Positions 7,545-31,605 of a stretch of 64,000 bases of DNA are shown in pieces. Location of the stretch: positions 468,758 through 532,757 of the forward strand of contig CALSUC010000001.1 of assembly GCA_943789445.1 (NCBI GenBank). Direction: 5' to 3'. This DNA is from an uncultured Gammaproteobacteria bacterium. GTDB lineage: Bacteria > Pseudomonadota > Gammaproteobacteria > UBA4575. The notes under the pieces are model-generated. The model made no database searches, was not told the origin of the DNA, and saw nothing but the letters and a program-made list of their open reading frames with translations. Positions within the stretch are counted from its first letter, which is position 1, and each line of letters opens with the position of its first letter. Both the position numbers and the translations under genes were made by a program.

Positions 7545-9002
7545 ATGTTGAAGGAAGAGGTTGAAGTAGCAAAAGGAAATCAGCGTCAAGGTATTTTGAA
7601 ATTCTTGATAGTGCTTTTGCTGACAGGTTTTTTGTTGGTTGTGGTTTTCTGGTTGTTGCCAAAATTGGTTTCAGTGCCAGACGTAGATAATGACAAGCCA
7701 AGTAAAACAACAAATCAAAGTGCAGCCCAGTCGTTAGGCGATCAAGCGAATAATAAAACGCCTGTTATTAGTTCCCAATATACACAAGAGCAGGCGCTGG
7801 ATGCGATTAAGGCATTTGATCAGCAACTGTTGTTAGTAGAGTCTTATCAGGCTTTGCAGAATGACATAGGCCTTATGCAAAGCATCGATAGAGTGCAAAC
7901 ACAGGTAACACAGGCCTTTACCCAAGCCAATTACGATACGGTGGTGCTTGCTCTGCAACAGTTGAGCCTTGATATTGATCAGGCAATCAATATTGCACAG
8001 CTGGCGTTAGAGCAACATCTGAGAACTGCTAGACAACTATGGCATGAAAAGCAGTTGACGCAGCTGCAAGTGGAACTAAAGCAAGCCCAGGCGATTCAAG
8101 CTGATCTGCCTGAATGGGTAGAGCTGAATGATTTGCTGATGGCGTGGCCTGAAGTGGAATCTCTATTAAGCATTGCAAAAACAGCAGGGTTCGAAGGGCG
8201 CTATCAAGAGCAATTGCAGGCTCTGACAAAGATTAGTCGCTTATCAAATGACCTACCTCAATTGACTCAGCAGATTGCAGATGTGAAAAGACAGGTGGCA
8301 GAAGATCAATATAGACAGGCTATTGCCAAGGCCGATGCCGCTAAGCGGATACCTGATTTAAGGCAGATGCGGGCTGCGATTAATATGGCTCGCCAAGTGT
8401 ATTCCCAACGCCCTGAGGTGATTCGTTTGACTCAAGAACTGGTTGAGTTAGAGCGCCAGCAAGACTATCAATTACAGCTAAGTCAGGCCGAGCTAAGTTT
8501 GACTAAGGATCAGTGGGTCTTGGCATTTAAAAACTTAAGTGCGGCTCATGATTTATATCCTAATCAACGAGATACCCAAGATAAAAAGGCCTTTGTCGCT
8601 GTTTACCTTAAGCTAATGCAAGAAAGTGCTGAGATCTTAAATCAACCAAGCTTGCTGACATCTGCGGTTAAGCGAAAGCGTGCGGCGAATATGCTGGATG
8701 GGATGGTTTTATATCGCAGTCTCAGTCTGCGTATGGCGAATATTGAAACCGAGTTGAGTAAGCAGCTTCAGCGTTATTCGCAAAAGGTAACATTGAAGGT
8801 ACTGTCAGATAATAAAACCTATGTCGAAGTCCGTAGTGTTGGCAAAGTGGGTGTTGTTGCAGAGAAGACGATCTCATTACTGCCTGGCAACTATTTGTTT
8901 GAAGGTAAACGCGTTGGCTATGTAACAAAGACGGTTAAGGTGATTATTACTCCTGAGGATCTGGATAAACAAGTGAAGGTGATTGCCAATGAGCGAATTT
9001 GA
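7545..9002 (+). CDS. single-pass membrane protein, long helical/TPR-like region, C-terminal PEGA-like beta domain (gene 3)
   Basis: TM ILKFLIVLLLTGFLLVVVFWLL; Q/L/A-rich helices; C-terminal ISLLPGNYLFEGKRVGYVTKTVKV. Confidence 0.75.
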   Translation: MLKEEVEVAKGNQRQGILKFLIVLLLTGFLLVVVFWLLPKLVSVPDVDNDKPSKTTNQSAAQSLGDQANNKTPVISSQYTQEQALDAIKAFDQQLLLVESYQALQNDIGLMQSIDRVQTQVTQAFTQANYDTVVLALQQLSLDIDQAINIAQLALEQHLRTARQLWHEKQLTQLQVELKQAQAIQADLPEWVELNDLLMAWPEVESLLSIAKTAGFEGRYQEQLQALTKISRLSNDLPQLTQQIADVKRQVAEDQYRQAIAKADAAKRIPDLRQMRAAINMARQVYSQRPEVIRLTQELVELERQQDYQLQLSQAELSLTKDQWVLAFKNLSAAHDLYPNQRDTQDKKAFVAVYLKLMQESAEILNQPSLLTSAVKRKRAANMLDGMVLYRSLSLRMANIETELSKQLQRYSQKVTLKVLSDNKTYVEVRSVGKVGVVAEKTISLLPGNYLFEGKRVGYVTKTVKVIITPEDLDKQVKVIANERI

Positions 9003-10962
9003 AGATCAGATTAAGCAAGCATCTTCACAGCAAAATACACGTTGGCTGATCTCTAGTATTAGCATCTCACTGTTATTGTTGTTTATTGGTTTATACATTT
9101 TTTCTTTAACGGTCTACACCATTCAGATCGAACCACTTGAAGCGGATGAGGTTTCTACGCAGTCGATTGAGACAGGGTTTGGGTTTAGCTATAAACAAAA
9201 AGTATTCGCCTTTTCAGACAAGACCAGTCTGCGTGTTAGTGCCACAGGCTTTAAAGATAAAGAGCTGGTCTTAAAGGACCATGTTAAGGATGGCATTGTT
9301 GCCTTTGATCTAGAGCCTAAGTTAGCGCTGGTTTCATTGCAGACTAAGCCAATGACTGTCGTTGATTGGTATCTTGATGGGCGTTTTGTTGAGCGTGCCT
9401 CAAGCCTGCAACAAGAACTTGATCCAGGTGAATATGTATTCAGTGCACAGTCTAATTACTATCAAGCTATCGACGATAGTATCAGTGTTAAAGCCGGGCT
9501 GGATGTTAATCGCATGTACCAGTTATCACCACTGACAGGTACATTGACGATCCATGCAGATGTACCATCAGCAAGACTTACAGTGGATGCTATGCCCTAT
9601 GAGCTAGGTGATGTGCTAAGTAAGCAGGCAGCCAAGTATGCGGTTGAGGTCAGTGCACCAGGTTATTACTCTATCCAAGAAGACATCTCTTTAGATAAGA
9701 AAGATCTCGCGATTCAGCGACATTACAAACTTCGACCTAAACCTATTGCATTGGCGCTGAACTTACAGCCTAAGGGTGGTGTGTTACTGGCTAATGGTCT
9801 TCAGATTAAACCTGCTGACACTATAAAATTACCGTATCAAAGACAACTTATCTTTGAATACACAAAGCCAGGCTATGTTAGTCAAGTGCTACAGCGTAAC
9901 TTTAAGCCGGGAGAACAATTCAGGCTAGTCTTGTCATTAATAGAACAAAAGGCTGCAGTCAGTATTAACGCAAATGTTGAGTCGGATATTTATATTCAAG
10001 GCCAGCGTATTGCGAGTACACCTGCAACACTGCAGTTGCTGACAAAGGAACAGACGATAGAACTGCGTAAAAAAGGTTATCGCAGTGTTAAGCAAACGGT
10101 CACACCGAATGTTAAACAGCTGACTAAGCTGCAAATGACACTGTATACCGAGGTGCAAGCACGGCTATTGGAGGCGAAGAGCGTCTATGTCAATTCGGTG
10201 GGCACTGAATTTCAACTGATCAAGCCACAGGGACAGCAATTCACTATGGGCGGTTCACGTGATGAGCCGGGGCAGAGGGCGAATGAATTCCAACGTAAGG
10301 TACGATTAGAGCGACCTTTTTATGTGGCTAGTACCGAACTGACGGAATATCAATTTTCAGCTCGTAATGCGAATTCTAATCAACCATTAGTGAACACTGC
10401 ATGGGAACAGGTTGCCGTATTTTGTAATCAATTAAGTCTGAAAGAAGGCTTGCAGCCGTTTTATCTATTTCGTGGTACTGAATACATTGGTTTTGAAGCT
10501 AAGGCGAATGGTTATAGGATGCTTACTGAAGCAGAGTGGGAGTTTATGGCGCGTATCTATAAGCGTGATAAGAAAACTACGTTTGCTTGGGGAGATCAGG
10601 ATCAAGTGCCGGCTGAGGCGGGTAACCTTGCTGATGTCGAAAGTCAGTTAACACGCTATATTCCACGTTATAAAGACGGAGTTAGTGGCCTAGCTAATAT
10701 TAGAAGTTATGCAATGGAATTATCAGGTTTGTTTGATCAGATCGGTAACGCTAGTGAATGGGTGCATGATATTTATGACCTAACGCCACCTGATCAACGA
10801 GTAGTGTATGTTGATCCTCTAGGCCTGCCCAGAGGTAATAACCATGTGATTAAAGGCTCAAGTTATTTGTCTGCCTCTAAAACTGAAGTCAGGGCAGCCT
10901 TTCGAGATGGCTCTGCTAGTCCAAGGCCTGAGTTAGGTTTCCGTTTAGCTCGATATTTATAA
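8989..10962 (+). CDS. membrane-anchored PEGA-repeat protein with a C-terminal FGE-sulfatase (SUMF1-like) domain (gene 4)
   Basis: N-terminal TM; PEGA-like repeats (ELDPGEYVF, TPATLQL...IELRKKGYR); FGE motifs FTMGG, YRMLTEAEWEF.AR, GLFDQIGNASEWV, VIKGSSY, LGFRLAR. Confidence 0.88.
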   Translation: MSEFEDQIKQASSQQNTRWLISSISISLLLLFIGLYIFSLTVYTIQIEPLEADEVSTQSIETGFGFSYKQKVFAFSDKTSLRVSATGFKDKELVLKDHVKDGIVAFDLEPKLALVSLQTKPMTVVDWYLDGRFVERASSLQQELDPGEYVFSAQSNYYQAIDDSISVKAGLDVNRMYQLSPLTGTLTIHADVPSARLTVDAMPYELGDVLSKQAAKYAVEVSAPGYYSIQEDISLDKKDLAIQRHYKLRPKPIALALNLQPKGGVLLANGLQIKPADTIKLPYQRQLIFEYTKPGYVSQVLQRNFKPGEQFRLVLSLIEQKAAVSINANVESDIYIQGQRIASTPATLQLLTKEQTIELRKKGYRSVKQTVTPNVKQLTKLQMTLYTEVQARLLEAKSVYVNSVGTEFQLIKPQGQQFTMGGSRDEPGQRANEFQRKVRLERPFYVASTELTEYQFSARNANSNQPLVNTAWEQVAVFCNQLSLKEGLQPFYLFRGTEYIGFEAKANGYRMLTEAEWEFMARIYKRDKKTTFAWGDQDQVPAEAGNLADVESQLTRYIPRYKDGVSGLANIRSYAMELSGLFDQIGNASEWVHDIYDLTPPDQRVVYVDPLGLPRGNNHVIKGSSYLSASKTEVRAAFRDGSASPRPELGFRLARYL

Positions 10963-13897: not shown

Positions 13898-14356
13898 TTA
13901 CCGCTTGGTTAGGAAGTGCTTACTCAGGTACCTATCCAATTCATTGGCAAAGGCTTTGCGGTCGGTTTGCCCATAAGGGGCTTGTCCGCCTGACTGGATG
14001 CCACTGCCACGTAAGGTATCCATGAAGTCACGCATGCTGAGTATCGATTTGATGGTGTTCGCTGTGTACATCTCGCCACGTGGATTCAATGCAGCCGCAC
14101 TTTTTTCGATGACTTCGGCGGCTAAGGGGATATCACTGGTAATCACTAGGTCGCCAGCGGTCACTTGCCTCACAATTTCGTCATCTGCTACATCAAAGCC
14201 ACCGGGGACCTGTAGCATTTTGATATTGCTTAGCCGTGGTTTATTAATCGCTTGATTAGCGACTAAGATAACTTCAACCCCAGTGCGTTCTGCTGCACGG
14301 AATAGAATGTCTTTCGCAGGTACTGGGCATGCATCTGCGTCTACCCAAATCTTCAT
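13898..14356 (-). CDS. yaiI: YaiI/YqxD family protein
   Basis: [43 protein letters not shown]. Confidence 0.93.
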
Positions 14357-14374
14357 CAGCAAGGGCTGGGTAAG

Positions 14375-15967
14375 TTATTGGTCGTCAACAGTAAGTAGGT
14401 ATTCATCATAACTGCCATGGAAATTGATCATCTTCTTATCTTTGATCTCGACGATGTGAGTGGCCAATGAAGACACGAATTCACGGTCATGGCTGACAAA
14501 GATTAACGTTCCTTCATAGTTTGCTAAGGCAAGATTGAGTGCCTCGATCGACTCCATATCTAAATGATTGGTCGGCTCATCCATGATCAGGACATTGGTT
14601 TCTAGCATCATCAGTTTGCCGAATAATAGGCGATTCTTTTCACCACCTGAGCAGACTGACGCCTTCTTATTGAAATCATCAGTGGAAAACAATAAGCGAC
14701 CGAGAGTTGCACGCACGATCTCTTCATTATGATGCGGTTTGCGCCATTGACTCATCCAGTCAAACAAATTCATAGCATGGTCAAAATCGTTATTACTATC
14801 CTGAGGGCAATAACCTAAGGTCGCATTTTCTGACCACTTGATGGTGCCAGCATTAGCCTTTAATTCATCTATTAAGCATCGTAGAAAAGTACTTTTCCCA
14901 GTGCCATTTTCGCCAATAACAGCCATACGACTGCCGGCTTCAATGATAAATCCGCCATCGCTGAATAAAGGCTCATCGTCATAACCATGACTCAAGTCTT
15001 CTACTATTAGGGCTTGGCGTTGTATCTTTTTGCTTTGTGTAAAGCGAATAAACGGATTGACACGGCTTGATGGCTTGATGTCTTCGAGTTTTATCTTCTC
15101 GATCTGTTTGGCGCGTGAGGTAGCCTGCTTTGCCTTTGATGCATTCGCTGAAAAACGGCTGACGAATTGCTGTAGATCAGCAATCTGGGCTTTTTTCTTC
15201 GCATTCTCATTCTGAGAATGTTCACGTACCGCAGTCGAGGCAATCATGAAATCATCATAATTACCTGGATAAACGCGTAATTCACCAAAATCCATATCCG
15301 CAATATGGGTGCAGATAGAGTTTAGGAAGTGCCTGTCATGCGAGATGATGATAATGGTGCTTTTGCGTTCGACAATAACGTTCTCTAGCCAGCGGATGGT
15401 GTGGATATCTAGGTTATTGGTCGGCTCATCAAGTAAGAGGATATCTGGATCAGCAAACAAAGCTTGCGCTAATAGTACGCGTAACTTCCAGCCAGGTGCG
15501 ACTTCACTCATCGGACCGCTATGGAATGATTCGGCGATGCCGGCACTCATCAGTAGTTCGCCAGCACGACTTTCTGCACTATAGCCATCTAGTTCAGCAA
15601 ATTCGACCTCAAGATCAGCAACCTTCATGCCATCTTCATCACTCATCTCGGGCAATGAATAAATGCGATCTCGCTCTTTTTTGACTTCCCATAAGTGGCT
15701 ATGGCCCATGATCACCGTGTCGACCACATTATATTCTTCAAAGGCAAATTGGTCTTGATGCAATTTACCAACACGCTCGTTTGGTGTGATTGATACATTG
15801 CCTGCACTGGGTGCAAGTGTGCCATCAAGAATCTTCATGAAGGTGGATTTACCACAACCATTGGCACCGATCAGGCCATAACGGTTACCTTCTCCAAACT
15901 TTACTGAGATGTCCTCAAATAAAGGTTTGGCGCCAAATTGCATAGTGATGTTTGCAGTAGAGATCAA
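14375..15967 (-). CDS. ybiT: ABC-F family ATPase (YbiT-like)
   Basis: [12 protein letters not shown] start; two ABC domains ([18 protein letters not shown]); [11 protein letters not shown]; no TM segments. Confidence 0.93.
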
Positions 15968-16213
15968 AACAGAGGCCTTAAAATATAATAGGGATACGAG
16001 GTATCATTTTTTGGATAATCGACGAATTTAGCTGCTTGAATAACGAGGAGCTTTCGCCGAGCAAGATGATAGCAAAATAAAGGCATGCAGAGGCATTTAA
16101 TCTCCGCGATTAGCTTAGTTGAAAAGCTGAGAATATGGTTTGGATGGGTGCTGGATTTAGCGTTAAGGCGTTGTTAGAGGAGGGGCTGTGCCCTTGAATA
16201 GAGCTTCAGCTAT

Positions 16214-16254
16214 AAAAAAGATAATAAGTGAGGGCGGTACGCCCTCACTTATTA
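16214..16254 (-). terminator. intrinsic terminator of the GST/monooxygenase operon
   Basis: Perfect 15-bp stem TAATAAGTGAGGGCG-GTA-CGCCCTCACTTATTA, followed on the minus strand by CTTTTTT. Confidence 0.85.
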
Positions 16255-16289
16255 AGGAGTAAATACTCGAACTTTAAATATTTAAAGCT

Positions 16290-16493
16290 TTAGGCATTCC
16301 ATTGATAGGCTTCTTCACCTGCGATGGCAAAAAATAGCCAAACATCAACCAATAAGGTGATCAAGAAGGCGACAGAGCTACCTAGCGCCCAGAGGATTTC
16401 TTGATGATGGCTACCAATGTCGAGTAGATAAAGACCGTAGCCTACCGCCCCAGTAAATAGCGCAATGACTAGTAAGGCTAGTTTTGTTTTCAT
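16290..16493 (-). CDS. 67-aa two-helix membrane protein, last gene of the operon
   Basis: Two hydrophobic segments; GAGAGAA RBS; lies between the monooxygenase gene and the terminator. Confidence 0.75.
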   Translation of the reverse strand: MKTKLALLVIALFTGAVGYGLYLLDIGSHHQEILWALGSSVAFLITLLVDVWLFFAIAGEEAYQWNA

Positions 16494-16550
16494 AGTGTTC
16501 TCTCAATTTTTCTCATTAGATTAAGATGAGTTGTAATTATTATGGTTTTT

Positions 16551-17735
16551 TTAGTCTGGTTTCTGGCATAGAGCCATGTCATGCCAGCCAGCTTTATAGT
16601 TCATCTTGGCAGCAATCTTTTGCTCACCCTCACTGGCTCGGTTTTCATCCCAGTCTGCGAGGTGCGGTTTAATGAAAGCTTCCCATACTGGAGGCACTAA
16701 AATCATCGCAAACATGGCGTAATAACCATAATGCGTATCTGGTGCATCACAGTCTTCAAGCTCCCAGAAATGAGTTTCACCACGGTCATGATGGTCTGCT
16801 TGACGTCCAATCTCAATGAAACCCCATTGTGTGAAAGGTGATTCAGCAACATCCCAAGAGTGGTGATAATCGATAGGTTGGCCTTTCTCGCGAATTAAGC
16901 CGTAATGCTCAAGATAATTGAGTACTTCTAATTCAAATGCTGAGATGACCCAGCTGACAACCATGACACCAAGACCTAACCAGCCGCCGGCTAACCAGAA
17001 GAAGAAAATGGAAGGTAGGCTCATAGCGTAGCCTCTGATCCAACGGTTTTGCCAAGAAATAAAAGGGATACCTAATTTCTGTAGGCGTTGCTTTTCCATA
17101 AGGAACAGGAATCGAGACTGACCGAAATGCGATAAGAGATAGTGTTTGTAGATGCTTCTGCCACGAGGCGATGTTGCAGGGTCGTCTTCACAACCAAGCT
17201 CGAGGTGATGGTTGTATACATGTGCATAGCAGAAATGCGCAATGCCGCTTAAAGCCATCATCCAGCGTGCTAGGACGAAGGTTGGGCCCTTGGTATGCGC
17301 AAGTTCATGTCCGAACATAATGCCCAAGCCTAGGTAGATCGCAGCAGAGACAGTGGCCGCACAAAGTTGTAAGCCGGTGACCCCATGCTGAATCTCAAAC
17401 CAACCATAAGTACTGACGCTAAACGGTACACCGTTGGCATATTCATATACGCGCCAGATTAAGGCCCCTTGGAGGCAGACAAAGACTGGGTATTGTACCC
17501 ACATCATGGCCTTTAATAAGCCTGGGATACCGTAGGTCTCACCGTCATCATCACGACCAGGAGGAGCGCAATGAATACCCTTCATGGCACTAGATGCTGC
17601 GTCTAAAATGATAGAAGCAATAAATAATCCGATGCCTGTCCAAACCCAGTTACCGCCAGCAACAATACCTAACAGTGCCAAGAAAATTAGAGCAGGGGTA
17701 AGAAAATAACGTAGATTAACGAGTAATTTATGCAT
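16551..17735 (-). CDS. membrane di-iron monooxygenase/desaturase of the XylM/AlkB family
   Basis: His boxes HELAH, AHVYNHH, NYLEHYGL, RQADHH; XylM-like ends (LRYFL.P ... KPHLADWD...KAGW). Confidence 0.88.
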   Translation of the reverse strand: MHKLLVNLRYFLTPALIFLALLGIVAGGNWVWTGIGLFIASIILDAASSAMKGIHCAPPGRDDDGETYGIPGLLKAMMWVQYPVFVCLQGALIWRVYEYANGVPFSVSTYGWFEIQHGVTGLQLCAATVSAAIYLGLGIMFGHELAHTKGPTFVLARWMMALSGIAHFCYAHVYNHHLELGCEDDPATSPRGRSIYKHYLLSHFGQSRFLFLMEKQRLQKLGIPFISWQNRWIRGYAMSLPSIFFFWLAGGWLGLGVMVVSWVISAFELEVLNYLEHYGLIREKGQPIDYHHSWDVAESPFTQWGFIEIGRQADHHDRGETHFWELEDCDAPDTHYGYYAMFAMILVPPVWEAFIKPHLADWDENRASEGEQKIAAKMNYKAGWHDMALCQKPD

Positions 17736-17770
17736 AAGTTGTCCCTCAATTTTTAATAATAGATAGCTTT

Positions 17771-18538
17771 TTAATAGTCCTGGATTTCGACAGATTGCAG
17801 TCGTCCAGTTTTTATATCGTCAAGGTTAGGTAGTAATTCGTAGGCGACTAAGTCTTGCCCACATTGACTCTTCTTAGTTTTAATTTTCTGCCACCAAGCC
17901 GCTACATTTTGATGTTTATTGATTAAATCAACATGTCCAGCAACAACTATGAGGTGGATGTAAGCCGTCCAATGTAGGTCGGCCCAGGTGTATTTATCAC
18001 AGACGATGTATTTGTTATTGCGTAATTGATTATCTAATGCGCTTAGATAGAGGTCCAGCCTGCTGAGTTGCTCTGCATCATTGCCTGTCGTCCCATTGAC
18101 CTCTTTATTGATCAAGTATTCTGCGACTGGCGCAAACTGCTTAATCGCAATGTCACTCCAATAATTTTGCATGGCTACAAGAGCCGCATTCAGCGGAGAG
18201 AGGCTATAACCTAAACCGCGTGCGTCGATGAAGGCAAGGATTGCTTTAGTACCACAGACCATGAAATCGGCCTCTTTAAGGCATGGTGTGATACCAAAAG
18301 GAGATATTTTTTGGAACTCAGCTTGAAATTCTTCTGCTGCCATCTTGTCTGTATTATAGGAATTCATCTCCATGCCTTGTTCACCAGCCGTGAGCAAGCA
18401 CTTCAAAGTATTAGCATCGATAGGTGTACCTAATAGTTCTAGGATGTACTGGGTCTTTTTCAGATCACCAGACAGGCCATATTTTGATGTGTCAGCCATG
18501 CCTGCTTGTGATGCCATTTTTTCGAATAGATCGGTCAT
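17771..18538 (-). CDS. glutathione S-transferase-fold protein (atypical)
   Basis: ISPFGITPCL (cis-Pro loop), YIVCDKYTWADL (N-capping box), NVAAWW. Confidence 0.8.
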   Translation of the reverse strand: MTDLFEKMASQAGMADTSKYGLSGDLKKTQYILELLGTPIDANTLKCLLTAGEQGMEMNSYNTDKMAAEEFQAEFQKISPFGITPCLKEADFMVCGTKAILAFIDARGLGYSLSPLNAALVAMQNYWSDIAIKQFAPVAEYLINKEVNGTTGNDAEQLSRLDLYLSALDNQLRNNKYIVCDKYTWADLHWTAYIHLIVVAGHVDLINKHQNVAAWWQKIKTKKSQCGQDLVAYELLPNLDDIKTGRLQSVEIQDY

Positions 18539-18576
18539 ATTAATTCCTTCTTAAATTCAGTTAGGCTTTGCTCTGA

Positions 18577-19188
18577 CTAAGTTGCATGCGCTTGAAGTTT
18601 TTCAGCGTGGTGAGGGATCCTGTCTTGCATCTGTATTAACCAGGCGGAAAGGTGTGTCAGTGACGTTAGGCTGTCGCTGATTCTTTCTTCTATTGCCCGA
18701 TAGGCGGCCAACCAGTGGATGTCAGCTAGTGTGAATTCGCCAACCATAAAAGAGTCTACTGACAGCTGTTTATCAACAGCTGTCAGTATCGTTTTTATCG
18801 CATCTTTATTGCCTTCAAAATCTGAAAGTAAGGGCTTCAATTTATCGTCAAGTAATTGAATCCAATAATTTTGTTGGGCAAGAACTCGCGCTTTCTTAGG
18901 GTGTACTGCTGGTGCACTACCTTTGATGTTGAGATAGCCAAGTAAAGCATCAGCCCGGCTCATGGTGATATCTTGATCTTCAATGATCGGTAGGCTATCT
19001 GTTTCTTTTAGATTCAAAGAATTCGAGAGGTTGCTGTCAAGAGCGCTGGCCTCGGACCAAGAGATATCAAGGTCCAGGTTCCGATGAGTTGCCAATAAGA
19101 TACATTTGAATGAATCGATGTCATTCGGCTTGCAAATCAACTTAGGCGACTGCTTTTTATTACTGCTCTTACGTGAAAAGAATCCCAT
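18577..19188 (-). CDS. second glutathione S-transferase-fold protein (atypical paralog)
   Basis: LPIIEDQD, AQQNYW, FMVGEFTLADI, HLSAWL; ATG at 19188 preceded by an AGGGGA RBS. Confidence 0.75.
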   Translation of the reverse strand: MGFFSRKSSNKKQSPKLICKPNDIDSFKCILLATHRNLDLDISWSEASALDSNLSNSLNLKETDSLPIIEDQDITMSRADALLGYLNIKGSAPAVHPKKARVLAQQNYWIQLLDDKLKPLLSDFEGNKDAIKTILTAVDKQLSVDSFMVGEFTLADIHWLAAYRAIEERISDSLTSLTHLSAWLIQMQDRIPHHAEKLQAHAT

Positions 19189-19273
19189 GGCGCTATCCCC
19201 TATTAGAGTGAAAAACCTCATATCTACTGTAAAAAAGATTACAAATGAGGATTATCTTTGCTGTTGAGGATGA

Positions 19274-19315
19274 ATGTTATTACACGGTTTTGAGGCCTAT
19301 CTTGATCTAGGTCAT
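19274..19315 (-). promoter_or_regulatory. FNR/Anr box with a -10 hexamer (class II activated promoter) for the GST-GST-monooxygenase operon
   Basis: Minus strand ATGAC-CTAG-ATCAA (19315-19302), 8/10 to TTGAT-N4-ATCAA; TAACAT at 19279-19274 puts the box centre at -41.5. Confidence 0.7.
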
Positions 19316-19411
19316 AAAGCACCAAACTAATTACAGTGTTCCCTGTAATGGTGTATTCTATTAACTATTGTTTTGAGTGATTTTGGCTGGTAGGAGTGAT
19401 GGCGCGGTGAG

Positions 19412-20149
19412 ATGAATAAAGACGATCAAAATACAGAGGAAAGGCGATGTGCTAATTGCTATTTAGCTGGGCTCTGTTTACCTCGCGCGCTGGGAAAAGA
19501 TGATTTACTGATGCTTGATGCAGCTATTAGTAGGCGAAAAACCTTGTATAAGGCTGATGCCATCTTTCATCAAGGCACTGAATCAGGCTGTATCTATGCG
19601 ATACGTTCAGGCGCGGTTCGGACCTATACCACAGCAAAAAATGGTGATGAACAGACCTTAGGCTTTCATTTGCCGGGAGATATTCTTGGGCTGGATGGCT
19701 TGGATAATAAGATTCATAGCTGTTCTGGCGTAACATTGGCTACATCGACGATCTGTGAGATTCCTCTCAAAGAGCTGCACATGCTCTGTATTAAAATGCC
19801 CGGTCTACAAAGGCAGTTGCTACATGTGCTAGGTGAGGAGATCAGTAAGGACCACACCATGTTGCTGATGCTGGCACGGTGTAATGCCGATCAAAAGTTG
19901 GCCATATTCTTCACCGATCTCTCTGAGCGGTTTGGAGAGCGTGGGTTTTCTACATGCGAATTTGAATTAACGATGACACGCAGTGAAATCGCGAATTATC
20001 TGGGTTTGGCCGATGAGACCATCAGTCGTTTGATCGCGCGATTCAAAGATAAAAACCTGATTCAGGTGCAGAGAAAAAGCATTAGGATTATAGCGAGAGA
20101 CCGGATGATTGAACTCGCTGAAGGGGAGTGCAGCCTGGATGAGGTTTAG
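19412..20149 (+). CDS. fnr: FNR/Anr oxygen-sensing CRP-family regulator
   Basis: N-terminal CANCYLAGLC cluster, fourth Cys in TICEIP, HTH MTRSEIANYLGLADETISR. Confidence 0.93.
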   Translation: MNKDDQNTEERRCANCYLAGLCLPRALGKDDLLMLDAAISRRKTLYKADAIFHQGTESGCIYAIRSGAVRTYTTAKNGDEQTLGFHLPGDILGLDGLDNKIHSCSGVTLATSTICEIPLKELHMLCIKMPGLQRQLLHVLGEEISKDHTMLLMLARCNADQKLAIFFTDLSERFGERGFSTCEFELTMTRSEIANYLGLADETISRLIARFKDKNLIQVQRKSIRIIARDRMIELAEGECSLDEV

Positions 20150-20183
20150 TCGTGGTGTTTGACCGTCTGTTTAAGCTGTAGGC

Positions 20184-21263
20184 TTAAACGTACTCGCGTC
20201 TCACATGTGCTGCGATACGACAGAGCAATTCATAAGTAATAGTATTAGCGGCTTCAGCAATGTCAGCTACCGGGATATCGTCTCCCCAGAGCTCTATGTG
20301 TTCACCAATCTCACAGTCGCAATCACTCAGATCAATCGTGATCATATCCATGGAAACACGGCCTAATACGTCACAGAGACGGCCTCGTACGCTGACTGGG
20401 ACAGTTTTTTCTAGGCTGCGTGGATAGCCATCAGCATAGCCTATAGCCACGATACCTATGCGCATATCCTGTGGGCAGGTATAGCTACCACCATAACCGA
20501 TACGGTCGCCTTGCTTGACCTGTTTGATCGCAATGACAGGTGCACGCACCGACATCACCGGTTTGAGTTCACTGACATCTGGGTGACTTTGTTCATTTTG
20601 GAATGGTGAGATGCCATAGAGTGCTAGACCTGGACGTATCCAGTCGCGCTGTGTTTTTGGGTAGGCGAAACTGGCGGCTGAGTTGGCGATGCTTCTTTCA
20701 CAACCCTCTATGCCTGCAATAGCCTGATCAAAATTGGCCTGCTGACGGTAGGTGCTCGCTTCATCAAGGATGTCGGCATTCGCTAAATGTGTCATTAGGC
20801 GTATTTTGCTGACGTTACTGCAATTGACTAATTGTTGATAGACCGTCTGTGCTTCTTCCTGAGAAAAGCCGAGACGGCTCATGCCGGTATCGATTTTTAA
20901 CCAAATACAGAGCCCCTGTTTTAACTTCTCTGAGCGTAATAGTGCGATCTGGTGTTCACTGTGCACTACCGCTTGAATATTACTGTTAGAAAAGTCTCTT
21001 AATTCCTGCTGATTAGCAAAGCCCTGAAGACAAATAATGGGATGTAATATACCGGCGCTACGTAATGTTAAGGCCTCATTGATGCAGGCGACGGCAAAGG
21101 CATCGCTTTGGTTCAAGGCCTGCGCCGTTTTAATCAGTCCGTGCCCATAGGCATCTGCTTTGACCACTGCCATCACTTTGGCATTAGGCGCATATGATCG
21201 AATCAAATTAAGGTTGTGGGTCAGCGATTCTAATCGTATCAGCGCATGGGCTGAACGGATCAT
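20184..21263 (-). CDS. alr: alanine racemase
   Basis: PLP motif VMAVVKADAYGHG, LKIDTGMSRLG, GYADGYPR, GRVSMDM. Confidence 0.97.
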   Translation of the reverse strand: MIRSAHALIRLESLTHNLNLIRSYAPNAKVMAVVKADAYGHGLIKTAQALNQSDAFAVACINEALTLRSAGILHPIICLQGFANQQELRDFSNSNIQAVVHSEHQIALLRSEKLKQGLCIWLKIDTGMSRLGFSQEEAQTVYQQLVNCSNVSKIRLMTHLANADILDEASTYRQQANFDQAIAGIEGCERSIANSAASFAYPKTQRDWIRPGLALYGISPFQNEQSHPDVSELKPVMSVRAPVIAIKQVKQGDRIGYGGSYTCPQDMRIGIVAIGYADGYPRSLEKTVPVSVRGRLCDVLGRVSMDMITIDLSDCDCEIGEHIELWGDDIPVADIAEAANTITYELLCRIAAHVRREYV

Positions 21264-22657
21264 GAGGGGATCTCGCCAGAATAGATCTCAGGGATGTAGT
21301 TTTCAAAGCGAGTATAAGGACCGAGAAACGTTAATCGGGTCTTGAATATAGGACCATTACGTTGTTTGGCGACGATAATTTCAGCGGTGCCTTTATCTGG
21401 ACTGTCATCGTTATAGACTTCATCACGATAGATGAAGACGATTAAGTCGGCATCTTGCTCAATCGCACCTGATTCACGTAAATCAGACATTTGGGGGCGC
21501 TTGTCTGGGCGTTGTTCCAAACTACGGTTTAGCTGTGATAGTGCGATCACCGGACATTCCATCTCTTTTGCTAGCGCCTTCAATGAGCGTGAGATCTCAG
21601 AAACATCGTTGGTACGGTTTTCTGTGCTGTTGTTGATTTGCATCAACTGCAGATAATCGACCACGATCAGGGCTAAACCATGTTCACGCTTGAGTCGACG
21701 TGCACGCGCACGCAGTTCGGTTGGGCCAAGTGCCGCACTGTCATCGATGAAAAGCTTTGCCTCAGAGAGCATAGAGACGGCGCTGGTGAGTCGCGGCCAG
21801 TCTTGGTCTTCGAGCTTGCCGGTACGTAGGCGTTGCTGATTAATGCGCCCAATCGAAGACAGGATACGCATAGTCAGCTGCTCTGCTGGCATCTCCATAC
21901 TGAAGATGGCGACACAGCCTTGGTTTTGGATGGCGGCATACTCGGCCATATTCATCGCTAACGAGGTCTTACCCATCGATGGGCGGCCAGCAAGGATCAC
22001 TAAGTCACCTTTTTGTAGGCCGGCAGTATTTTCATCAAATTCATCAAAGCCGGTGGCTAGACCGGTAATTGAGCTGTCTTGCTCCGATAACATGTCGATC
22101 TTTTCGACTGTTGCCTTAAGTAAATCTTTGATGCCGATAAAGCCGGTGTAACGACTCGCACCCTGATCACCAATACGGAGTATTTTTTGCTCGGCAAGAT
22201 CGAGTAGTTCAGTGCTGTCTCGGCCCTGCGACTGATAGGCTGATCCAGCAATATCGGTGCCGATACTGGCTAGTTGCCTTAAAATTGATTTTTCACGGAC
22301 GATGTCGGCATATGCGACGATATTTGCTGCTGTTGGCGTCTCTTTAGCCAGTGTTGCGATGTATGCAGAGACGTTTTTGGCGTTAAAGGAGCCTGATTCT
22401 GCCGATTGTTTGATCTTATCGGAGAGGGTAACGACATCAAAGGGTTGGTTATGGTAAGCCAACTCACTAATGGCGCGAAAGATAACGCGGTGGTCGAATA
22501 GGTGGAAGTCATCTTCAACTAGGACATCGGCGATCTGATCCCAGCTACTGTTTTCCAGCATTAAGCCGCCAAGCACGGCTTGCTCTGCCTCTAGAGAATA
22601 CGGCGGAGTACGCAGTGATTCTGCGTTAGGCGCTGTGCTTGAATTCGACTCCGCCAT
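21260..22657 (-). CDS. dnaB: replicative DNA helicase
   Basis: PPYSLEAEQAVLGGL, GRPSMGKT, IVVDYLQL, SDLRESGAIEQDAD; no intein. Confidence 0.98.
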   Translation of the reverse strand: MAESNSSTAPNAESLRTPPYSLEAEQAVLGGLMLENSSWDQIADVLVEDDFHLFDHRVIFRAISELAYHNQPFDVVTLSDKIKQSAESGSFNAKNVSAYIATLAKETPTAANIVAYADIVREKSILRQLASIGTDIAGSAYQSQGRDSTELLDLAEQKILRIGDQGASRYTGFIGIKDLLKATVEKIDMLSEQDSSITGLATGFDEFDENTAGLQKGDLVILAGRPSMGKTSLAMNMAEYAAIQNQGCVAIFSMEMPAEQLTMRILSSIGRINQQRLRTGKLEDQDWPRLTSAVSMLSEAKLFIDDSAALGPTELRARARRLKREHGLALIVVDYLQLMQINNSTENRTNDVSEISRSLKALAKEMECPVIALSQLNRSLEQRPDKRPQMSDLRESGAIEQDADLIVFIYRDEVYNDDSPDKGTAEIIVAKQRNGPIFKTRLTFLGPYTRFENYIPEIYSGEIPS

Positions 22658-30807: not shown

Positions 30808-31605
30808 TTAACGGCGAGTGTGATTTTTTTCAGCAAAAGGAAGTGCAAATAACCCACCCAAACTATTGCAGTCTGGCTCTGAGTAAGCCGGGCCAAGCCC
30901 TAACTTGAAATGTTCGCTTAATGGCTGTGATTGAAAACTATAGAACAATCGATCCCAAACACTGAAGAGACTGCCGTAGTTGCTATCTGTTTCCTGTTGC
31001 CGATCAGAATGGTGTAGCCGATGCATGTGAGGTGTCACAACGATATAGCGTAGTACACGATCTAAAGATGCTGGGATACGTAGATTACTGTGATGGAACA
31101 ATATAACGGGCAGGGCAACAATCTCATAGATAATGAGATGCTCGATGCTGAGGCCAAATACTAGGATAAGTGGGATTCTTGTTAACCCTGAAAGCAGAAT
31201 CTCACCGGTATGAAAGCGCACAGCGCTACTGGCATCCATCTCGCTGTCACAATGGTGTGCCCGATGAAAGCGCCATAAGACTGGAATTTGATGATTCATG
31301 CGATGCCATAGGTATTGCCATAGATCGATGATAATAAGTGCAACGACAATGCTCACACTAGTGTTTAGTTCTAAGTGATGGAGTAGACCAAACTGGCGTA
31401 TATCTGCCCAGTGTTCAGCACTTTCGAGTAGGGTAAACAGGAGCATGAGGCTAATAATTGCATTGAATAGGCCTAATGCAATATTACGCAGCGAATGACT
31501 TAGGTGGTGTTTGCGTGAGGCAAAATAAGGGAATAGCTGCTCGCTAAAATAGAGCAAACTGAAGATGCCGATAACTAAGAAAAACTTAATAGTCTCTAGT
31601 GTCAT
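30808..31605 (-). CDS. sterol desaturase / fatty-acid hydroxylase family protein
   Basis: His boxes YLWHRMNH, WRFHRAHH, PHMHRLHH; NYGSLFSVWDRLF. Confidence 0.9.
   Translation of the reverse strand: MTLETIKFFLVIGIFSLLYFSEQLFPYFASRKHHLSHSLRNIALGLFNAIISLMLLFTLLESAEHWADIRQFGLLHHLELNTSVSIVVALIIIDLWQYLWHRMNHQIPVLWRFHRAHHCDSEMDASSAVRFHTGEILLSGLTRIPLILVFGLSIEHLIIYEIVALPVILFHHSNLRIPASLDRVLRYIVVTPHMHRLHHSDRQQETDSNYGSLFSVWDRLFYSFQSQPLSEHFKLGLGPAYSEPDCNSLGGLFALPFAEKNHTRR

Follow-up and report, generated by a model that had tools for sequence, protein, structure and literature searches.

The AlkB and XylM enzymes are the textbook hydrocarbon hydroxylases of membranes. XylM of the TOL plasmid pWW0 is paired with the reductase XylA, and AlkB with the rubredoxin AlkG and the reductase AlkT (Pseudomonas putida GPo1; Fontimonas thermophila, structures 8f6t and 8sbb). 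Here we describe a four-gene unit, at positions 16,214 to 19,315 of a 64,000-nucleotide stretch of DNA (the window) from an uncultured gammaproteobacterium (contig CALSUC010000001.1), which encodes two proteins with a glutathione S-transferase (GST) fold, an oxygenase of the AlkB/XylM type and a small membrane protein. Our analysis shows that the unit is a real operon and that it specifies an uncharacterized relative of the AlkB/XylM enzymes, and we lean towards the view that its products belong to a conserved multi-component monooxygenase of the XylM/XylA type, of which they would form the membrane core and the dedicated accessory proteins.

The oxygenase resembles XylM in type and size (a membrane His-box di-iron hydroxylase of about 370-390 amino acids), and in a search of annotated plasmids XylM aligned with it end to end with 28% identity. 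In addition, the reductase that adjoins orthologous oxygenases has the XylA architecture, a 2Fe-2S ferredoxin with FAD and NAD domains, and a FadL/TodX-type channel is encoded near the cluster in relatives, as XylN is on the TOL plasmid. However, the window oxygenase lies on a long, separate branch of the tree and carries Gln in place of one His ligand, its family adds a 67-amino acid membrane protein, two to three GSTs, a truncated hemoglobin and a Fer4_19 protein, alcohol and aldehyde dehydrogenase genes are absent, and in the window the reductase is unlinked. With AlkB the family shares the fold and the motifs HELxH, HxxHH and NYxEHYG, but the AlkB proteins of annotated plasmids aligned with the C-terminal two thirds of the oxygenase only (approximately 27% identity), Gln takes the place of the first His in box 3 in this family, and no rubredoxin was seen anywhere in its loci. 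The nearest annotated relatives, with 29-33% identity, are the AlkB-like hydroxylases represented by a fusion protein of plasmid pPNAP01 from Polaromonas naphthalenivorans and by plasmid-encoded proteins of Hydrocarboniclastica marina, in which a fused or adjacent ferredoxin-reductase provides the same type of electron donor. In contrast to the family described here, these hydroxylases keep the His in box 3, are not accompanied by a GST, a globin or a small membrane protein, and are encoded in catabolic operons together with a GMC oxidoreductase, an aldehyde dehydrogenase and an acyl-CoA ligase.

An operon around an AlkB/XylM-type oxygenase

The genes of the unit and its terminator are located in the window as follows:

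18577..19188, minus strand: GST1, a fast-evolving GST-fold protein of 203 amino acids with a conserved basic MGxF N-terminal tail; the longest open reading frame starts at 19221
17771..18538, minus strand: GST2, a phi/delta-class-like GST-fold protein of 255 amino acids, in which a 31-residue N-terminal extension and the C-terminal tail are conserved
16551..17735, minus strand: oxygenase, an AlkB/XylM-fold membrane di-iron protein of 394 amino acids
16290..16493, minus strand: small protein of 67 amino acids that has two hydrophobic helices and, in a loop, the conserved pattern HH..E.LWA.G
16222..16254, minus strand: intrinsic terminator with a 15-bp stem, a 3-nt loop, seven G-C pairs and a T run

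The assignment of the 394-amino acid protein to the XylM/AlkB type, first made in a reading of the DNA without database searches (the sequence-only reading), is borne out by its Pfam match to FA_desaturase (PF00487) at 2.5e-25, by AlkB as the sole match among solved structures when compared by sequence (1.6e-26, phmmer against the PDB), and by the full-length alignment with XylM. Moreover, when the AlphaFold model of the oxygenase (predicted local distance difference test, pLDDT, 81; predicted template modeling score, pTM, 0.84) was used as a Foldseek query, FtAlkB was retrieved (8f6t and 8sbb, TM 0.72-0.76), with nothing else below E = 0.1. The motifs HELAH, HVYNHH, NYLEHYG and RQADHH contain eight of the nine canonical His ligands, and the first His of box 3 is replaced by Gln312 in every aligned family member, while all aligned outgroups, including the fused ferredoxin-reductase forms, have His at this position. 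Among 1.8 billion cluster representatives searched, one full-length representative showed 59% identity and the next 36% or less, a drop which indicates that the family is tight and isolated. Neither the oxygenase nor the 67-amino acid protein is matched by any NCBIfam family, and the latter has no match in Pfam. Likewise, the literature searched contained no characterization of the family, although the sequence-only reading had allowed for an already characterized cluster; the genome note of Sedimenticola thiotaurini merely names "an alkane-1-monooxygenase". The two His residues in the loop of the small protein were considered as a source of the missing ligand and rejected, since this loop appears to be periplasmic by the positive-inside rule and the iron site of AlkB is cytoplasmic.

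Comparison with relatives was based on 80 loci from species genomes encoding oxygenase relatives, whose hosts are Gammaproteobacteria that are uncultured or have been little studied and that include many sulfur oxidizers (named hosts are Thiodiazotropha, Candidatus Porisulfidus, Thiohalocapsa, Piscirickettsiaceae and Arenicellales). The oxygenase tree splits into clade I, which holds the window gene, and clade II. Of the clade-I loci with at least 3-4 kb of flanking sequence, 29 of 29 have the small-protein gene and two or more GST-fold genes no further than 5 kb from the oxygenase gene, whereas a single GST gene was found in 9 of 34 clade-II loci and two in none. Three gene orders were observed in clade I: order A, to which the window belongs, has fnr and, divergently, GST1-GST2-oxygenase-small; order B has oxygenase-small, then fnr on the opposite strand, then GST1-GST2; and order C has oxygenase-small-GST1-GST2. 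In this clade the small-protein gene always comes directly 3' of the oxygenase gene. Since the linkage survives three gene orders, it provides good evidence that the four products work together, and the loss of the GST pair from most homologs, which would have contradicted the sequence-only reading, was not found in clade I.

The intergenic gaps between the four same-strand open reading frames are only 38, 35 and 57 nt (open reading frame list, 16214-19315) and, together with the terminator and the divergent fnr gene, they uphold the earlier description of a complete transcription unit. For GST1 the start at 19188 (MGFF...) is preferable to that at 19221, as orthologs begin with MGLF, and the 203-amino acid form is also present in gene calls on identical metagenome contigs. 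The unit is flanked in the window by rplI-dnaB-alr on one side and by an ABC-F gene on the other; a horizontally acquired island was rejected because the composition is unremarkable and many metagenome contigs show the same arrangement. The GST1 coding region contains, at 18757-18788, a perfect palindrome with a 14-bp stem and a 4-nt loop, TACTGACAGCTGTT GATA AACAGCTGTCAGTA, which the terminator scan lists on both strands.

The GST-fold proteins and the electron donor

GST1 matched Pfam GST_C with 21.9 bits, just over the cut-off, and GST2 matched GST_C_3, GST_C and GST_N. A profile of GST1 orthologs retrieved delta-class GSTs from the PDB at 8e-22 and matched the GST2 profile with 99.9% hhalign probability, which establishes that GST1 truly has a GST fold. 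GST2 matched phi-class GSTs at 1e-16 and aligns with plant phi-class and insect delta-class enzymes. A thioredoxin-like N-domain and a helical C-domain are supported for both proteins by sequence comparison, while the AlphaFold model of GST2 (pLDDT 68 overall) is confident in the C-domain only and has low confidence in the N-domain.

In both window GSTs the position of the catalytic Ser is occupied by Asp, and GST2 has Gly-Thr where the glutathione-binding Glu-Ser is expected. Residues were counted in 103 family proteins from four clades (GST1 of orders A and B, GST1 of order C, GST2, and a reductase-linked GST3). The catalytic position was Asp in 74, Cys in 18 and His in 5, with the canonical Ser/Tyr absent in all clades, and the Glu of the Glu-Ser pair was Gly in 95 and Glu in none, followed by a variable residue. 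A minority of the proteins have Cys-Pro at the catalytic position, the motifs K46-C47 and D-x-H-W characterize the family, and in GST1 of order B the beta3/cis-Pro segment is lost. The replacement of catalytic and glutathione-site residues makes these GSTs look like accessory or ligand-handling subunits. The sequence-only reading had rightly called them atypical, and of its two suggestions, the residues favor repurposing as accessory subunits of the membrane enzyme over the handling of a reactive product by glutathione chemistry. Judged from the conserved sequence features, the GST pair is probably a conserved, non-catalytic accessory. The N-terminal extension of GST2 is invariant at F5, Y20, G21, G24 and K27-Y31 and disordered in the single-protein model; this extension, the C-terminal tail of GST2 and the MGxF tail of GST1 may serve as docking elements.

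Metaxins are a precedent for GST-fold subunits of membrane complexes. Similar to the GST-fold scaffolds SspA, FzlA, metaxins/Tom37 and AIMP3/eEF1-epsilon-1, the proteins described here have a degenerate glutathione site, and weak profile matches to SspA, FzlA, Tom37 and eEF1-epsilon-1 were obtained. However, no specific relationship to any of these scaffolds emerged, and the proteins match catalytic phi- and delta-class GSTs best. A GST gene pair adjoining an oxygenase gene is likewise known from IsoI/IsoJ of isoprene degraders and StyI/StyJ of Gordonia, but these systems combine soluble di-iron or flavin oxygenases with catalytically competent GSTs, and both the glutathione-site residues and the downstream pathway genes are absent from the family described here.

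With regard to electron transfer, the relatives are better equipped than the window. The full cluster, found in order-C loci and in the cultured Sedimenticola thiotaurini SIP-G1 as well as at loci L025, L034, L035 and L040, comprises a FixL-like kinase, a FixJ-like regulator, Bac_globin, Fer4_19, GST3, reductase, oxygenase, small protein, GST1, GST2 and a 70-amino acid protein. The reductase in orthologous clusters consists of Fer2, FAD_binding_6 and NAD_binding_1, as in XylA, and it forms, together with Bac_globin and Fer4_19, the recurrent gene clusters c3, c6 and c17. In S. thiotaurini and in metagenome-assembled genomes of Thiodiazotropha and Arenicellales the reductase gene is directly upstream of the oxygenase gene, and Fer4_19 and truncated hemoglobin genes are also present. 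Clade-II operons have the order oxygenase-globin-Fer4_19-GST-reductase-small. In order-A relatives a globin and an OmpW gene are found beyond fnr, and ccoNOP, a FadL/TodX channel, DUF302, hemerythrin and the reductase are found downstream, the reductase copy lying 6-7 kb away behind ccoNOP.

In the window, tblastn with the relatives' reductase, globin and Fer4_19 proteins gave no match anywhere in the 64 kb. Precomputed Pfam hits on identical metagenome contigs, covering approximately 8.5-64 kb of the window, included no ferredoxin, rubredoxin or reductase gene, with QueG as the only Fe-S protein; in the first approximately 8.5 kb no partner of the relatives' type was found by tblastn with the three proteins, a search that had no rubredoxin query and no Pfam scan of the open reading frames, which makes the lack of an unrelated carrier less certain there. 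As none of these neighbors of order-A relatives, from the globin and OmpW to ccoNOP, the channel, DUF302, hemerythrin and the reductase, was found in the window, the four genes appear to be a relocated subset whose donor is encoded elsewhere. Thus, the earlier statement that the unit has no electron-transfer partner is correct for the 64-kb window and does not describe the system, in which a XylA-type reductase adjoins the orthologs. By analogy with these orthologs, we infer that a XylA-type reductase acting in trans is the electron donor of the unit. A cluster-3 reductase gene was also found directly after a gene for a 765-773-amino acid molybdopterin oxidoreductase, approximately 4-6 kb downstream of the clade-II copy (L051, L058, L060, L062, L069, L075, L076).

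Regulation and expression

Upstream of GST1 the window contains the following features:

19412..20149, plus strand: fnr, divergent from GST1 (NF008365, 4.6e-75, 252 bits against a cut-off of 228)
19302..19315, minus strand: FNR/CRP-family palindrome ATGACCTAGATCAA, read as ATGAC-CTAG-ATCAA, with 8 of 10 consensus positions
19274..19279, minus strand: candidate -10 hexamer TAACAT, which would set the box center at -41.5

The box at 19315..19302 would be centered 41.5 nt upstream of the +1 position deduced from TAACAT, and the class II consensus is TTGAT-N4-ATCAA; the promoter scan listed ATAACA/GATAAT at 19280..19251 instead. A single FNR box was rejected as strong evidence because such matches are frequent in the window, where 69 matches of 8/10 or better were found and 45 expected. 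However, a TGA-N6-TCA palindrome, mostly CTGAT-N4-ATCAG, is present in the fnr-GST1 spacer of 14 of 14 order-A loci (the window included), and in 7 of these 14 spacers two palindromes lie 49-62 bp apart. In order-B loci FNR-like boxes are found upstream of the separately transcribed oxygenase gene. The fnr gene adjoins the unit in all order-A and order-B loci, and where it is absent a FixL/FixJ-like pair adjoins the cluster. These sequence patterns suggest that Fnr is likely the regulator of the unit.

Seawater metatranscriptome assemblies contain 72-97% of the sampled words of the operon; one of their contigs spans 16298..19294, exactly the four genes, and another ends at 16254. The contig depth of the operon was similar to that of flanking housekeeping genes. 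Metagenomes and metatranscriptomes of seawater commonly contain the organism of the window (window 14300-21300 in runs X1, X2, X4 and X5), and an identical GST2 protein occurs in 106 blocks of the metagenome collection, on contigs of up to 1.2 Mb.

Proposed function and competing explanations

In the multi-component monooxygenase towards which the evidence points, the 394-amino acid protein would be the catalytic di-iron subunit and the 67-amino acid protein its stoichiometric membrane partner. GST1 and GST2 would form a GST-type heterodimer lacking canonical glutathione binding, a peripheral subunit that might serve docking or hand over a substrate or product, either hydrophobic or a thiol. 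By analogy with the orthologous clusters, electrons from NAD(P)H would be delivered by the 2Fe-2S/FAD reductase of the XylA type, possibly through the small Fer4_19 protein, and the truncated hemoglobin would supply or buffer O2; reductase, Fer4_19 protein and globin would act in trans, encoded outside the 64-kb window. FNR probably controls transcription from a class-II-like site, and such control would tune an O2-consuming enzyme to the oxygen supply. As substrate we favor a small hydrophobic or volatile compound of exogenous origin rather than a membrane lipid, because the fold is that of AlkB/XylM, the closest outgroups of the oxygenase are located in catabolic operons with alcohol/aldehyde dehydrogenases, and OmpW and FadL/TodX channels recur, together with hemerythrin, near the cluster in relatives.

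Several observations weigh against this proposal. With a Gln ligand the chemistry of the enzyme could be altered or might not even be that of an oxygenase, and the GSTs with Cys-Pro at the catalytic position may, judging by this residue pair, carry out thiol-transferase chemistry. No XylA-type reductase of the window organism was found within the 64 kb searched, and some of the cluster-3 reductases may serve another enzyme. Furthermore, contig depth is a weak measure of expression in which DNA carry-over is possible, and if the seawater of the metatranscriptome samples was oxygenated, the unit would not be strictly induced at low oxygen.

The main rival is a lipid-modifying role, in which an O2-dependent desaturase or hydroxylase of endogenous lipids or quinones is induced under oxygen shortage so that product levels are maintained, with the GSTs as lipid-binding ligandins. 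The oxygenase indeed belongs to the Pfam family FA_desaturase, its genomic context is of the housekeeping type with no catabolic genes downstream, a paralogous copy is found beside fabA in many genomes, and the adjacent oxygen-sensing regulators and globin would be expected if O2 limits a biosynthetic step; that seawater metatranscriptome assemblies contain the unit is also consistent with this role. However, the NYxEHYG motif, the full-length similarity to XylM and the structural match to AlkB alone indicate hydrocarbon hydroxylases rather than acyl-lipid desaturases, and neither the uptake channels OmpW and FadL/TodX that recur nearby nor the dehydrogenase-containing catabolic operons of the closest outgroups fit an endogenous substrate, so that we regard a lipid or quinone substrate as rather unlikely. 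An epoxide or other electrophile made by the oxygenase and opened with glutathione by the two GSTs, as by IsoI/IsoJ or StyI/StyJ, is less probable still. Alkene epoxidation is possible for AlkB and XylM, a tandem GST pair adjoins the oxygenase and Cys-Pro is present in the minority of GSTs mentioned above, but the GSTs lack the catalytic Ser/Tyr, no GST clade retains the Glu-Ser glutathione site, and one lineage has lost part of the thioredoxin-like domain from GST1. Moreover, no dehydrogenase, CoA-transferase or glutathione-synthesis gene was found among the recurrent neighbor clusters of the 80 loci, and the analogy to these epoxide pathways drawn in the sequence-only reading is not supported.

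AlkB-type enzymes attack methyl thioethers, which counts in favor of another explanation, a membrane monooxygenase for dimethylsulfide (DMS) or another methyl-sulfur or volatile compound that would hydroxylate the methyl group to yield methanethiol and formaldehyde, with the GST pair capturing the thiol or aldehyde. In Methylophaga thiooxydans, whose first DMS enzyme has not been assigned, four genes were induced 29- to 136-fold by DMS relative to methanol, encoding a "fatty acid desaturase domain protein" (from 10 to 1359), an NAD-binding oxidoreductase (12 to 618), the truncated globin glbN (21 to 601) and a FadL/TodX-type porin (18 to 1469) (PMC6548844). In a striking match, the same four types of component, compared by description, surround the oxygenases with Gln in box 3, the hosts of which are sulfur oxidizers and marine bacteria, and the unit is present in seawater metatranscriptome assemblies. 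On the other hand, the M. thiooxydans desaturase-domain protein is at most a putative member of this Gln-box family, the authors interpret its gene as one of lipid repair, and the DMS-induced genes listed in the text of their article include no GST (PMC6548844). In addition, no methanethiol oxidase gene was present among the gene clusters found in at least 9 of the 80 loci. We consider this more specific substrate assignment unlikely. In its most specific form, this explanation would have the Gln-box family start DMS breakdown in marine bacteria that have no DmoA, together with the 67-amino acid subunit, the XylA-type reductase, Fer4_19 and the truncated hemoglobin, and the clade-I GST heterodimer would be a new kind of peripheral subunit that takes the toxic methanethiol and formaldehyde from the membrane enzyme; as a whole, this version also appears improbable.

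Whichever substrate applies, the family departs from AlkB/XylM in that one of nine iron-binding His residues is changed, in a partner set that has not been described for any AlkB/XylM member (small membrane subunit, GSTs without a glutathione site, globin and Fer4_19), and, as its conserved gene neighborhood suggests, in its placement under oxygen-sensing regulators. It is widespread, with hosts among uncultured marine sulfur oxidizers, symbionts of sponges and lucinid clams, and free-living bacteria of seawater, and because one cultured strain, S. thiotaurini SIP-G1, carries it, experiments are possible. Once the substrate is known, a core oxygen-dependent reaction of the host bacteria could be named, which may belong to the marine cycling of volatile sulfur or hydrocarbons, and the role of GST-fold proteins for a membrane oxygenase would become apparent.

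Further variants were observed among the relatives. Several genomes contain two clade-II oxygenase copies (L062/L064, L058/L065, L060/L061, L069/L055 and L067/L068; at approximately 7986-9232 in each locus), one beside fabA and a MerR-like regulator and the other in a globin-Fer4_19-GST-reductase operon. The paired copies share 99.6-100% DNA identity over the gene alone (1150-1242 bp), while the protein identity between genomes is 82-96%, a pattern that looks like ongoing gene conversion between the two loci. In Porisulfidus-type loci (L046:9430-11880, L047:12163-14661, L049, L053, L054) a protein of 816-832 amino acids is encoded at a distance of approximately 4 kb from the gene for the Gln-box protein. 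A canonical AlkB-like domain with a RHADHH box and 27% identity to the window oxygenase makes up the N-terminal half of this larger protein, and its C-terminal half, approximately 450 residues, is soluble and has no annotation. In two distant lineages (L085:600-4480 and L096:16033-19807) the oxygenase cluster is accompanied by a trio consisting of an acyl-CoA-dehydrogenase-like gene followed immediately by a PAS histidine kinase and a LuxR-type response regulator. At L094:10001-13895 the oxygenase gene is followed, in this order, by genes for a 218-amino acid protein that has no Pfam match, a 77-amino acid small protein, a FadL/TodX channel and a SCO4226-like protein, in a variant without reductase or GST annotation. 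Finally, a gene of a second membrane di-iron family (PF04116, FA_hydroxylase, 265 amino acids) is located in the window at 30808-31605 on the minus strand, after purA among housekeeping genes.

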